Shown in pieces: positions 1 to 1,550 of a stretch of DNA of 1,550 bases (positions are counted from its first letter, which is position 1; the number at the start of each line of letters is the position of its first letter). The translations under genes were made by a program, and so were the position numbers. A model generated the notes under the pieces. It was not told the origin of the DNA. It was given only the letters and a program-made list of their open reading frames with translations, and searched no databases. This DNA comes from Escherichia coli. Its GTDB lineage: Bacteria; Pseudomonadota; Gammaproteobacteria; Enterobacterales; Enterobacteriaceae. Where the stretch lies: assembly GCF_003334355.1 (NCBI RefSeq), contig NZ_QOWP01000086.1; one strand, given 5' to 3'.

Positions 1-1550
1 GATGGCCACGGGATTGGTGCGCCGACTGGGTAGCTTTCTGGTGGAAGATTTTTCGAGGTATAAACTTCTGCCCAGTCTTCCTCAAAACCATAGCCATCTC
101 TTGAGGAACGGTAGAACAGACCTCCATTTCTGTAATGTGCCTTCATCTGCAAGGTCCGGCAACTTCCGACTCCGGTATAGAAGTTAACCAGAATATAGGT
201 GTCGCCAGAGCGGGTGACATTGTAAGCGCCTGATTCGGCATTCCAGGGAACACCACCATCCGCATCGGCATATGTATCCGTTGCCCTTCTGGCAAAAGCA
301 GCCACATGCGCGGCGGTTAAAGTGATATCAGTAGAACCATCAAATGGAACACCGGATATTTTTCTTGCAGTCTGAAGTTTTGTAGCAGTTGCAGCATTAC
401 CAGTGGTGTTCTGATTACCCGTAGTGTTTACACCTGGAAGGTTAATATTTGCAGAACCGTCGAAAACAACTCCACCGATAGATCTTGCCGTCTGCAATTT
501 CGTGGCTGTACTTGCATTACCATTCAATGAACCAGTTAATCCACCTGTAACAGACAACGGACCTGAAACTGTTCCTCCGGTTGTTGGCAGTGCTCCAATA
601 TCTGATGGTGTAGGTTTCTGATGTGAGCTATACATCGTATAAACAACACCATAGGTAACGCTGGAAGGCTTACTCGCTGAATATGTTGGCGAGGTATAAA
701 CAGAAACTGACGCATTTGCAGTACAATCCCAATGGATATTTACACTCGTCGCATAATTGCCAATCTCAACGTAAATATCATATGTATCGCCGGATGTGTT
801 GATCCAGGCGAAATTCGTTAATCCGACGGCTGTACGCTTCCACAAAGCCCCGGTAATTCCTTTGGGGTTTCCATTGCCTGCTCGTAGAACCAGTTCTGAA
901 ATGCCTGCCTGATGTGGGGAACCGACGTTGTAACCAGCGCCACCAATCAATGCGATGTAAACGATGGAACTCGCTTGTGGCATGGTAACCGTAGCCAGTT
1001 TGAACCACCCAGCCCCGCCAGAGAAAGACATCGTTACTGAATTTAAAGTACCAATATCTTTCGGCGTTAATGTTATATCCGCAGTCAGTGCTTTTCCGTT
1101 AACTTTTCGGTTAGATGGCACCCTGCTATTCGCATTGTCATTGGCTGCTTTAACTGCTTTTGGCGTTGCGGCCAGCGATTCACTGGTGCTATCAACAGCA
1201 CTGCTAAGTTTCACAACACCTTTAGTTGTAAGGCTTGCGTCTTCCATCGCAACTGCACCGGCAATCTCTTCAGCACGATCAGCAGCAGCTTCCGCACGGG
1301 TCGCAGCGGATTCAGCAGTAGTTTTGCTCTGAGATGCTGCCGTCGCACTGCCTGCCGCCTCTGTTGCTTTCGTGGATGCCGTCGTGGCGCTGCCCCGCGC
1401 TGCTGACGCCTGTCTGGTCGCCTCATCTTTTGAAGCAGACGCCGATGATGCCGATGACGCCGCCGAACTGGCTGACGATGCGGCTGCCGTTTTTGAGGAT
1501 TCTGCACGGGTTTCCGACGCTTTCGCGTTCGTTTCGGATGTCTTCGCTGC
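1..1550 (-). CDS. Phage/prophage side tail fibre protein (lambdoid Stf-like), internal fragment; both ends lie outside the window
   Basis: Minus-strand frame with codons at + 1550..1548 down to + 5..3 is open for all 516 codons. This frame is absent from the ORF track, consistent with no in-window stop. Translation begins AAKTSETNAKASETRAESSKTAAASSASSAASSASSASASKDEATRQASAARGSATTASTKATEAAGSATAASQSKTTAESAATRAEAAADRAEEIAGAVAMEDASLTTKGVVKLSSAVDSTSESLAATPKAVKAANDNANSRVPSNRKVNGKALTADITLTPKDIG and ends ...SKNLPPESYPVGAPIPWP. The Ala/Ser-rich rod, the SESLAATPKAVKAA motif, the KLQTAR..FDGS..I.L repeats and the GAPIPWP motif are all characteristic of enterobacterial side tail fibre proteins as I recall them. 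Family assignment is from memory, not a search. Confidence 0.9.
3..23 (-). other. GAPIPWP junction motif at the window edge
   Basis: The last seven complete codons of the in-window translation read G A P I P W P (minus-strand GGC GCA CCA ATC CCG TGG CCA). As I recall it, this is the first part of the GAPIPWPSD motif shared by lambda Stf-type and other tail fibre proteins; the expected following residues lie beyond + position 1. Confidence 0.7.
318..398 (-). repeat. Tail-fibre repeat unit 2 (protein-level repeat NAATATKLQTARKISGVPFDGSTDITL)
   Basis: Residues 385-411 of the translation; same TATKLQTAR-x-I-x-GV-x-FDGS-x-x-I-x-L pattern as unit 1, 40 residues downstream of it. Confidence 0.8.
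438..518 (-). repeat. Tail-fibre repeat unit 1 (protein-level repeat NASTATKLQTARSIGGVVFDGSANINL)
   Basis: Residues 345-371 of the translation; matches unit 2 at 20 of 27 positions. Confidence 0.8.
531..1031 (-). other. Unassigned central domain of the fibre (about 165 aa), possibly a beta-rich module
   Basis: Residues 174-340: MSFSGGAGWFKLATVTMPQASSIVYIALIGGAGYNVGSPHQAGISELVLRAGNGNPKGITGALWKRTAVGLTNFAWINTSGDTYDIYVEIGNYATSVNIHWDCTANASVSVYTSPTYSASKPSSVTYGVVYTMYSSHQKPTPSDIGALPTTGGTVSGPLSVTGGLTGS. Composition is rich in G, T, S, V, Y and W with alternating hydrophobic residues; I cannot assign a named motif from sequence alone. Confidence 0.4.
1143..1172 (-). other. Conserved tail-fibre motif LAATPKAVKAA
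   Basis: Residues 126-136 of the translation (SESLAATPKAVKAAND). As I recall it, the (S/T)ETLAATPKAVK motif recurs in lambdoid and related enterobacterial tail fibre proteins. Confidence 0.7.
1248..1550 (-). other. Ala/Ser/Thr-rich low-complexity segment of the fibre (putative N-proximal shaft region)
   Basis: Residues 1-101 of the in-window translation are dominated by A, S, T with scattered K/E/R (e.g. KTAAASSASSAASSASSASAS, TRAEAAADRAEEIAGA). The DNA here is visibly more GC-rich than the rest of the window, about 65% in one hand-counted 60-nt block versus about 38-45% in blocks further 5' on the + strand. Confidence 0.75.
1440..1457 (-). repeat. Short tandem 9-nt repeat (2 units) encoding SSA-SSA within the Ala/Ser-rich segment
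   Basis: Minus-strand codons TCA TCG GCA / TCA TCG GCG; + strand reads cgccgatgatgccgatga at 1440..1457. Confidence 0.6.

Follow-up and report, generated by a model that had tools for sequence, protein, structure and literature searches.

The window, by which we mean the whole 1,550-nt stretch examined here, is an internal piece of an Escherichia coli lambdoid-prophage side tail fibre gene of the StfR/lambda-Stf type, and its content is the middle and distal shaft of the fibre. The minus strand forms a single open frame of 516 codons (reverse-complement frame 0) without a stop, which ends with ...ESYPVGAPIPWP (+ positions 23 to 3) and whose translation closes with ...NLPPESYPVGAPIPWP. Four relatives carry 5–15 mismatches to the window over 1550 nt (99.0–99.7% identity). 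The closest one, from E. coli EC2341, is 99.7% identical at positions 8001–9550 of its locus (L001), inside the CDS of WP_210833249.1, and with its 1075-codon gene as the measure the window comprises codons 357–872 and two bases of codon 873. The gene of WP_210833249.1 is located after J-type tail genes and lom; L001 itself lacks the J region and has stf-tfa after a lom remnant, and the stf gene comes after J-lom in three further loci (L008–L010). The prophage tail fibre N-terminal domain (PF08400, phage_tail_N) was identified at residues 1–134 of the relative (E=1.5e-71), outside the window, and the fibre protein matched PHROG tail-fibre families, while neither the fibre nor the chaperone matched any NCBIfam family. 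Open reading frames on the plus strand (e.g., 964–1332, 122 aa), which are antisense to the Ala/Ser-rich, GC-rich part of the fibre frame, were not taken as genes. The following features were identified:

1–1550, minus strand: internal part of a StfR/lambda-Stf-type side tail fibre gene, open at both window ends
1–2, minus strand: first two bases (TC) of a Ser codon; relatives read TCA GAT (S-D)
3–23, minus strand: codons of G-A-P-I-P-W-P, start of the Collar (D10) and of the exchangeable tip, equal to T4 gp37 G816–P822
24–32, minus strand: Y-P-V, conserved lead-in of the tip module, where the conservation step is located
33–41, minus strand: P-E-S junction or linker (protein aa 860–862) joining the tip module to the domain upstream of it
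42–299, minus strand: domain with homology to a section of the Mu S', P1 Sv', P2 H and Felixounavirus fibres (aa 774–859, ...YRNGGLFYRSSRDGYGFEEDWAEVYTSKNLP)
318–521, minus strand: two copies of the fibre repeat unit GNA.TATKLQTAR..GV.FDGS..., read from the translation
600–1040, minus strand: globular mid-fibre domain (SFSGGAGWFKL...YTMYSSHQKPTPSD)
1132–1137, minus strand: second mosaic junction, the end of the conserved lambdoid Stf N-terminal part, located by blastn

Residues L858-P859 were assigned to the upstream Mu S'-like domain and not to the P-E-S linker. The two fibre repeat units are alike only at the protein level, and no direct repeats were found in the DNA of the window. At the second mosaic junction, L008, L009 and L010 are about 93% identical to L001 up to 8413–8414 (= + position 1137) by blastn, and phage matches break at query 419.

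The heptapeptide G-A-P-I-P-W-P is encoded in frame on the minus strand by + positions 23 to 3, followed by TC at +2 to +1, in exact agreement with the interval 1–23 given in a preliminary description of this DNA. Because the last two coding-strand bases of the window are TC, the next residue is forced to be Ser (TCN). The continuation S-D expected in that description agrees with the four closest relatives, all of which have Asp as the next residue and run on as SDTVPSGY... with no stop. The source of the window would probably continue likewise, judging from its 99.0–99.7% identity to these relatives. GAPIPWP is no chance 7-mer here, because it lies in frame within a 99.7%-identical tail-fibre ORF, aligns with the first position of the Pfam Collar model (PF07484), and is part of the 9-mer GAPIPWPSD, which stands verbatim in 86 of the top 150 representatives of 50%-identity clusters. 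A full-text search of the searchable papers found the string 'GAPIPWP' in none, and the motif name is not tied to a publication.

DNA and protein similarity to other fibres begins at the first base of the motif's Gly codon. Over the 90 nt upstream and downstream of this codon, identity to the reference was 0.32 and 0.99 for an O157:H7 prophage, 0.42 and 0.98 for O157:H16, 0.23 and 0.87 for lambda, and 0.37 and 0.70 for T4, and in lambda and the O157:H7 prophage the similarity starts at the same base (L001 9528). In a survey of E. coli with a 620-nt probe centred on the motif (motif at probe position 301), 3884 records matched, 1828 of them covering at least 80% of the probe; in a 60-row spread sample, 31 of 34 partial matches started at probe positions 292–313, with 86–98% identity. 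In about half of the ~3,900 matching E. coli records, the similarity is limited to sequence that begins no more than about 12 nt from the Gly base; this tip-only proportion of ~50% comes from one count (1828 of 3884) and the 60-row sample rather than from all rows.

At the protein level, the mean pairwise identity of 99 anchored cluster representatives was 0.10–0.26 from −60 to −4 (bar 0.34 at −13), rose to 0.57, 0.94 and 0.51 at −3, −2 and −1, and remained at 0.36–0.98 from the step at −3 to +69, in a sample that favours proteins having the downstream half in common, with a query spanning the motif and four columns fixed by construction through the anchor G..[IVL]PW. This profile was taken from a 50%-cluster search in place of a redundant homologue search consisting mostly of near-identical partial E. 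coli proteins, the same redundancy that inflates an HSP-start peak at −31 (53 matches). CMS-2020a diverges about 20 residues before the motif, and other junctions lie 14–31 residues upstream of it; the motif is one joint among others in the region and not the sole one. The same tip stands behind at least five unrelated upstream contexts. The O157:H7 FRIK944 prophage has a relative of the mid-fibre domain at 600–1040 fused directly to a GAPIPWPSD tip. The alignments of T4 and lambda begin at S862, and those of Mu S', P1 Sv' and P2 H end at 859; in other fibres, quite different modules come after the Mu S'-like domain.

The tip, the chaperone and the hypervariable segment were read from the relatives, as the window itself stops at the motif. 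Pfam Collar PF07484 matched residues 866–913 of the closest relative (E=1.6e-11), with model position 1 on G866; only the first 7 Collar residues lie inside the window, and the remainder is seen in the relative. The structure of the T4 gp37 tip (PDB 2XGF) matched from 'pesyp' onward (E=1e-88), and by blastp residues 862–1075 were 70% identical to T4 gp37 812–1026 and 68% identical to lambda orf314 69–314. The window contains the first 10 tip residues, YPVGAPIPWP, and the forced Ser, and the full tip follows in the four relatives, although one of them, L013, is truncated by IS3. His-x-His repeats (GAHTHS/GAHAHT/GSHGHT), for which metal binding is predicted, were found in L001, L014 and L015 outside the window, and L001 and L015 have different sequence in the segment that separates the repeats. 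The next gene (L001 10160–10744, outside the window) matched phrog_105 'tail fiber assembly' (E=4e-99); it is a lambda-Tfa-type chaperone gene, 93% identical in DNA to lambda tfa. The cassette begins with the Gly codon and, in lambdoid relatives, includes all of tfa, whereas in T4 the shared part ends with gene 37. Additionally, we found the tip in T4 (Straboviridae), lambda (Lambdavirus), P2-like phages (Peduoviridae), lambdoid prophages and a 106-kb plasmid.

These comparisons bear on the remaining claims of the preliminary description. Its distal region proved to be the receptor-binding tip of T4 gp37 and lambda Stf, the following gene an assembly chaperone of the lambda Tfa type, and the module boundary was borne out in DNA and protein across phage families. 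The distal module had been placed beyond + position 1; the exchanged tip does lie there, but the boundary is the 5' edge of the motif (Y-P-V|G), so that the first residues of the module are inside the window. Likewise, the host-range-determining part lies distally as described, but not immediately after + position 1: the first ~105–120 aa beyond it are conserved collar/stem scaffold (PMC9659904; PMC6957217), and the hypervariable specificity segment comes ~120 aa past the motif.

The T4 gp37 tip (811–1026; PDB 2XGF) has the same motif as the window gene at G816–D824, and shares with the relative the collar, the His-x-His repeats and the conserved C-terminal ...NTVKNIAFNYIVRLA. Upstream of residue 812, however, T4 gp37 is unrelated to the window gene, its hypervariable tip segment is unlike that of the relative, and the DNA similarity goes no further than gene 37, gp38 having no DNA-level similarity to the relative's Tfa. 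T4 is a virulent myovirus. In lambda (Ur-lambda) the gene order is J-lom-stf-tfa, which recurs, minus J, in the closest relative. The N-terminal part of lambda Stf is 72% identical to the relative over aa 1–404, and stfR of the K-12 Rac prophage matches the 620-nt probe, junction included, with 96.6% identity. The middle of the lambda fibre and its hypervariable tip are unlike those of the relative, and in place of a Mu-S'-like domain before the motif lambda Stf has a vestigial cix-like peptide (VLEYLGAGENSAFPA). The upstream side of the junction in the window gene (aa 774–859, 86 residues) is 43–53% identical to a domain of Mu S' (gp52, PDB 8JU3), P1 Sv' and P2 H, the similarity stopping at residue 859, 7 residues before the motif. 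In Mu and P1 the invertible segment contains this S'-type domain, and the C-terminus that comes after it is short, of another kind and without the GAPIPWPSD tip. In a P2-like phage from E. coli O157:H43 T22 (KC618326), a Collar-type tip (GVPVPWPSA...) and its chaperone are likewise the exchanged unit, and the exchange point lies a few codons before the first Gly of the collar; that tip shows only 35% identity and has no His-x-His needle, and its exchange is by a DNA invertase at 31-nt crossover repeats, whereas the present gene has no such site.

Since downstream similarity starts at the Gly codon and the upstream residues match Mu S', P1 Sv' and P2 H, the motif is the leading edge of an exchanged tip-plus-chaperone cassette. 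We put at about 0.9 the probability that it marks the collar start of a gp37/lambda-Stf-type tip and Tfa cassette, with its left end fixed at the motif, in a lambdoid Stf gene. By this reading, (Y-P-V)-G-A-P-I-P-W-P-(S-D) opens the collar domain (T4 gp37 D10) and with it a ~210-residue C-terminal receptor-binding tip of the T4-gp37/lambda-Stf kind. After the collar this tip has a needle or stem whose His-x-His boxes are predicted to bind iron, then a hypervariable part, and a Tfa-type chaperone gene comes behind it. Tip and chaperone travel as one cassette among lambdoid prophages, and the tip itself also occurs in unrelated phage families. The sequences directly show the motif and its frame, the assignment of the domain, the sharp step in homology, the variety of upstream partners and how far the cassette reaches in relatives. 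According to the published structure, D10 of T4 gp37 is formed jointly by an initial stretch of ~70 residues of the module and its final ~17, and presumably only joints just before the first strand of D10 would give a fibre that folds. We infer that the junction is fixed by selection for foldable joints and not by a site-specific mechanism. The comparisons show the motif to be a module edge, and a crossover within the motif would go beyond the data.

In lambda and the O157:H7 prophage the joint falls at an identical base before unrelated upstream sequences, and in others it lies no more than about 12 nt from that base. This raises the possibility that the motif-coding DNA (GGYGCRCCRATCCCGTGGCCATCAGAT) is itself a recombination site, with homologous or microhomology-mediated crossovers in the short shared sequence. 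The 27 nt of motif DNA are nearly invariant among lambdoid copies, and recombination between conserved motifs in T-even adhesin genes was reportedly described by Tetart et al. in 1998. We consider this very unlikely, as the conserved DNA runs ~280 nt past the motif at 87–99% identity. Because of this extended conservation, a crossover between motif-bearing genes may fall anywhere in the ~280 nt, and one within that stretch would leave no visible joint at the motif. T4, moreover, has the peptide in common but only about 70% of the DNA, and on the upstream side of the visible joints identity is random (0.23–0.43), which points to non-homologous joining followed by selection. That a dedicated or strongly biased joining mechanism acts on the motif-coding DNA, as opposed to selection alone on random joints, is highly improbable; if one did, it might be a cryptic hot spot descended from the invertase crossover sites found 7–13 codons upstream in P2-like phages and lambda.

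Such sites also lead to the idea that site-specific inversion left the boundary behind as a relic, the tip and chaperone having once been the variable (Sv-U) part swapped by a Pin/Gin/Cin-type invertase, as in the Mu G, P1 C or e14 P invertible segments. Systems of this type, p15B Min among them, are characterised by a gix/cix/pix-like crossover site (...AAACC..GGTTT... core) within the fibre gene and by a second tip and chaperone in inverted orientation next to an intact invertase gene. A frameshifted 231-nt recombinase (invertase) remnant, 84% identical to the invertase gene of a P2-like phage, does lie right after tfa in L001, but it is a pseudogene, and between tfa and this remnant there is no inverted Sv'-U' cassette. 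In the T22 phage the 31-nt inverted crossover repeats encode GLLAYLGLGE, 7 codons before the collar start GVPVPWPSA, and lambda stf retains, 13 codons ahead of GAPIPWPSD, a cix-like sequence (EYLGAGE) with homology to cixR and the P1 Sc end; in the window gene, residues LPPESYPV stand before the motif in place of such a crossover peptide. No cix/gix/hix-like site was found in the relative's fibre gene or the window above chance level: four invertase crossover site models scanned against the L001 locus gave best matches of 17/28, 17/26, 16/26 and 20/26, none meaningfully placed, and the invertible-segment explanation was rejected for this gene on these grounds. With T4 having the same junction without an invertase, an origin by inversion is extremely unlikely.

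The start of a tip at GAPIPWP is an ordinary feature that has already been described, and both the exchange between T4 and lambda and the ~215-aa shared tip are published. The swappable tip of ~215 residues, with its chaperone, has been known since the 1980s–90s to be common to T4 gp37, lambda Stf and numerous phages of enterobacteria. Magaziner & Salmond catalogued the shared tip in 2022, with homology confined to the last ~215 aa (T4 812–1026) in >200 phages and a specificity region at 932–965 (PMC9659904). D10 of T4 gp37 comprises 811–881 and 1010–1026 and has the gp12 collar fold (PMC6957217), gp37 814–860 resembles the gp12 collar (PMC3004832), and lambda-derived sequence has served as a replacement for the C-terminus of T4 g37 with g38 (PMC3157838). 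Binding of OmpC and/or LPS and a role in host range are known for T4 and lambda only (PMC6957217, PMC12617516); with these two as models, the receptor of the present tip may be of the OmpC/LPS type.

For annotation, the window is a side tail fibre fragment whose host-range-determining end lies just off it. Relatives 99% identical to it carry different hypervariable tips, and therefore the specificity of this copy is not inferable from the window. In addition, the sharp DNA step at the Gly codon offers a clean natural fusion point (Y-P-V|G) for the engineering of chimeric fibres.

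The reverse complement of the window is open in frame 0 over all 516 codons, and the plus strand contains short ORFs only. From its start, this frame encodes an Ala/Ser-rich region, a 'KGVVKLSSAVDSTSESLAATPKAVKAANDNA' fibre unit, a globular domain, two 'TATKLQTAR..GV.FDGS' repeat units, and a domain ending '...YRNGGLFYRSSRDGYGFEEDWAEVYTSKNLPPESYPV', with GAPIPWP at the end. The presence and coordinates of this motif were exact in the preliminary description. The plus-strand ORFs, including that at + 964-1332 (up to 122 aa), are antisense to the Ala/Ser-rich, GC-rich part of the fibre frame; they most likely result from its codon composition and are not genes.

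The window matched 4018 E. coli records. The top match was strain EC2341 (99.7% identity across the full 1550 nt), in which the window spans codons 357-872 of a 1075-codon gene annotated as 'prophage tail fiber N-terminal domain-containing protein', with differences at five nucleotides and one amino acid. Upstream of this gene are tail genes and a lom remnant; downstream are a tail fibre assembly gene, the frameshifted remnant of a recombinase, and a defence gene. Based on this gene context and on the match to K-12 Rac stfR (96.6% identity over the junction region), the gene of the window is identified as an StfR / lambda-Stf-type side tail fibre. The features of the window and the EC2341 locus (L001) are as follows:

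Window + 23..3, coding strand minus: seven motif codons (GAPIPWP)
L001 10775-11005: frameshifted Pin-type DNA invertase remnant directly after tfa, 84% identical to P2-like phage invertase
L001 11190-12794: 'TIR domain-containing anti-phage reverse transcriptase' gene after the invertase remnant, at the prophage end

Four independent tests agreed that the motif site is a module boundary. The 110 residues after the first Gly of the motif (G866 of the EC2341 fibre) matched 480 phage records, including Tequatrovirus T4, lambda, Fels-1, P2-like, Yersinia, Klebsiella, and Acinetobacter phages. The preceding 110 residues had 224 matching records, from a different set (P2 H, Mu S', P1/P7 Sv or Sv', and Felixounavirus fibres), with alignments that stopped at residues 104-107 of the query; in blastp, similarity to Mu S', P1 Sv', and P2 H stopped at residue 859. 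Mutually unrelated peptides precede the tip ('...TPSEQFYPP', '...TSAHPPAEFYPV', '...GAGENSAFPA', '...KTDIMSSYPI', and, before GAAIPWPSD on a 106-kb plasmid, '...WTPQDSFPV'). At the DNA level, a step was measured as identity to the reference over 90 nt on either side of the Gly codon.

DNA identity to the reference in the 90 nt upstream and the 90 nt downstream of the Gly codon
O157:H7 prophage: upstream 0.32, downstream 0.99
O157:H16 prophage: upstream 0.42, downstream 0.98
lambda: upstream 0.23, downstream 0.87
T4: upstream 0.37, downstream 0.70

Additionally, 3884 E. coli records, including 1828 with probe coverage of at least 80%, were matched by a 620-nt probe with the motif at its centre (position 301); in a spread sample of 60 rows, 31 of 34 partial matches started at probe positions 292-313, with 86-98% identity. 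In a motif-anchored protein profile of 99 representatives of 50%-identity clusters, which were retrieved with a query spanning the motif and in which the anchor pattern fixes four columns, mean pairwise identity was 0.10-0.26 from -60 to -4 (except 0.34 at -13), rose to 0.57, 0.94, 0.51, and 1.0 at -3, -2, -1, and 0, and held at 0.36-0.98 to +69.

The Pfam Collar domain (PF07484) covers residues 866-913 of the EC2341 fibre, and its model position 1 is the motif Gly. A search of solved structures retrieved the T4 gp37 tip (2XGF, E=1e-88), in an alignment opening at 'pesyp/mssyp', immediately before GAPIPWPSD. Comparison of the distal region with known fibre C-termini, as had been proposed, thus identified a T4 gp37 / lambda Stf tip: residues 862-1075 aligned by blastp with T4 gp37 812-1026 (70% identity) and lambda orf314 69-314 (68% identity). 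In T4 gp37, D10 (residues 811-881 and 1010-1026) has the gp12 collar fold, and D11 (882-1009) is an insertion bearing the receptor-binding tip (PMC6957217); the likeness of residues 814-860 to the gp12 collar was observed earlier (PMC3004832). Since the published D10 begins at 811, the motif (T4 G816-D824) is the very start of D10. It is textbook knowledge that lambda-derived sequence replaced the g37 C-terminus and g38 of T4 (PMC3157838, citing George 1983, Hendrix & Duda 1992), and a 2022 study described a family of >200 phages sharing just the last ~215 residues, from T4 812 on (PMC9659904). The string GAPIPWP was found in no paper of the searchable literature. The motif finding is a correct reading of an already known feature, and its interest is therefore low.

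The motif is part of the distal module, which has its edge at Y-P-V|G. The claim that the motif is an exchange junction is supported as to the boundary; the data reveal the module edge and no crossover location. Conserved DNA extends ~280 nt past the motif, so exchanges between two motif-bearing genes would be possible anywhere there without a trace. The visible joints have no similarity on the upstream side; they may have arisen by non-homologous joining and subsequent selection for a foldable collar, which fits this absence. Additional joints occur close by, with a cluster of homology starts at -31 and, in the phage-plasmid CMS-2020a described below, a break ~20 codons before the motif.

A link to site-specific inversion was also examined. 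The fibre gene of the P2-like phage KC618326 (O157:H43 T22) has perfect 31-nt inverted repeats with an invertase crossover core (L004 2953-2983 and 4817-4847), encoding GLLAYLGLGE 7 codons upstream of the collar start GVPVPWPSA, together with an alternative inverted tip lacking the collar, a second chaperone, and an intact invertase. In lambda stf, a vestigial cix-like sequence, GTTCTTGAATACCTTGGGGCCGGTGAGAA (L003 2952-2988), encodes VLEYLGAGE 13 codons before GAPIPWPSD, in a protein context (GRDILAKNSVADVLEYLGAGE) with homology to the end of P1 Sc at cixR (GRDILAKTSILAVIQYLGLRE). Therefore, the tip is the invertible 'variable part' in some lineages. For the gene of the window this link was rejected: no invertase crossover site was found in it, and the EC2341 locus yielded no second inverted cassette and, as its sole invertase gene, the decayed one downstream.

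The predicted S-D continuation without a stop codon was confirmed. Ser follows GAPIPWP irrespective of later sequence because the two leftover bases are TC on the coding strand, and relatives 99.0-99.7% identical to the window supply the rest. The EC2341 fibre runs 203 residues past the window, with abundant GAHTHS-type repeats and the C-terminus ...NTVKNIAFNYIVRLA. In three more relatives (differing from the window at 6, 10, and 15 positions), the first ~105 residues past the motif are identical, bar one A/V substitution in two. The preliminary description had placed the host-range part directly beyond + position 1; the motif does open the distal module, but its first ~105-120 residues are a conserved scaffold and the specificity segment follows. 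In one of these three relatives, L015 (99.0% identical in the window), a different, longer segment than in EC2341 lies between His-x-His repeats ~120-180 codons past the motif, so that exchange of the distal specificity segment does not depend on the motif junction. This segment corresponds to T4 932-965, the specificity region of gp37 (PMC9659904). The specificity-bearing part of the window's own copy is not inferable from the window. In another of the three, strain 23CRST009 (99.6% identity to the window; L013 3444-4550), the fibre is cut within the hypervariable tip by an IS3 element, with loss of the C-terminus and tfa.

In lambdoid relatives, the shared DNA starts at the Gly codon, at L001 9528 for both lambda and FRIK944 and at 9487-9537 for the remainder, and stops at the end of tfa (10722-10749), with a low-similarity gap across the hypervariable segment in lambda; in T4 it stops at the gene 37 stop codon. 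The downstream chaperone gene, for which comparison with known systems had been suggested, is tfa in EC2341, whose product matches phrog_105, and lies within this shared cassette.

A second mosaic junction was found at + 1132-1137 (L001 ~8414-8419), right after ...ATPKAVKAANDNA; other lambdoid prophage fibres are ~93% identical to EC2341 until this junction and diverge beyond it, and phage matches also break at query position 419. The phage-plasmid CMS-2020a is 95.5% identical in DNA to positions 1-1469 of the window's reverse complement, ending ~20 codons before the motif:

L012 1942-6672: CMS-2020a fibre, 1576 residues, different end (107.6-kb unannotated Escherichia phage record)

Past the shared part, this fibre has ~770 further residues in which the same modules recur in part, and by eye its C-terminus looks like an intramolecular chaperone (S74-type). 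In the O157:H7 FRIK944 fibre (aa ~690-760), the GAPIPWPSD tip is joined directly to a domain that is related to the globular mid-fibre domain of the window; both fibre repeats and the Mu-S'-like domain are skipped, which makes the fibre ~100 residues shorter.
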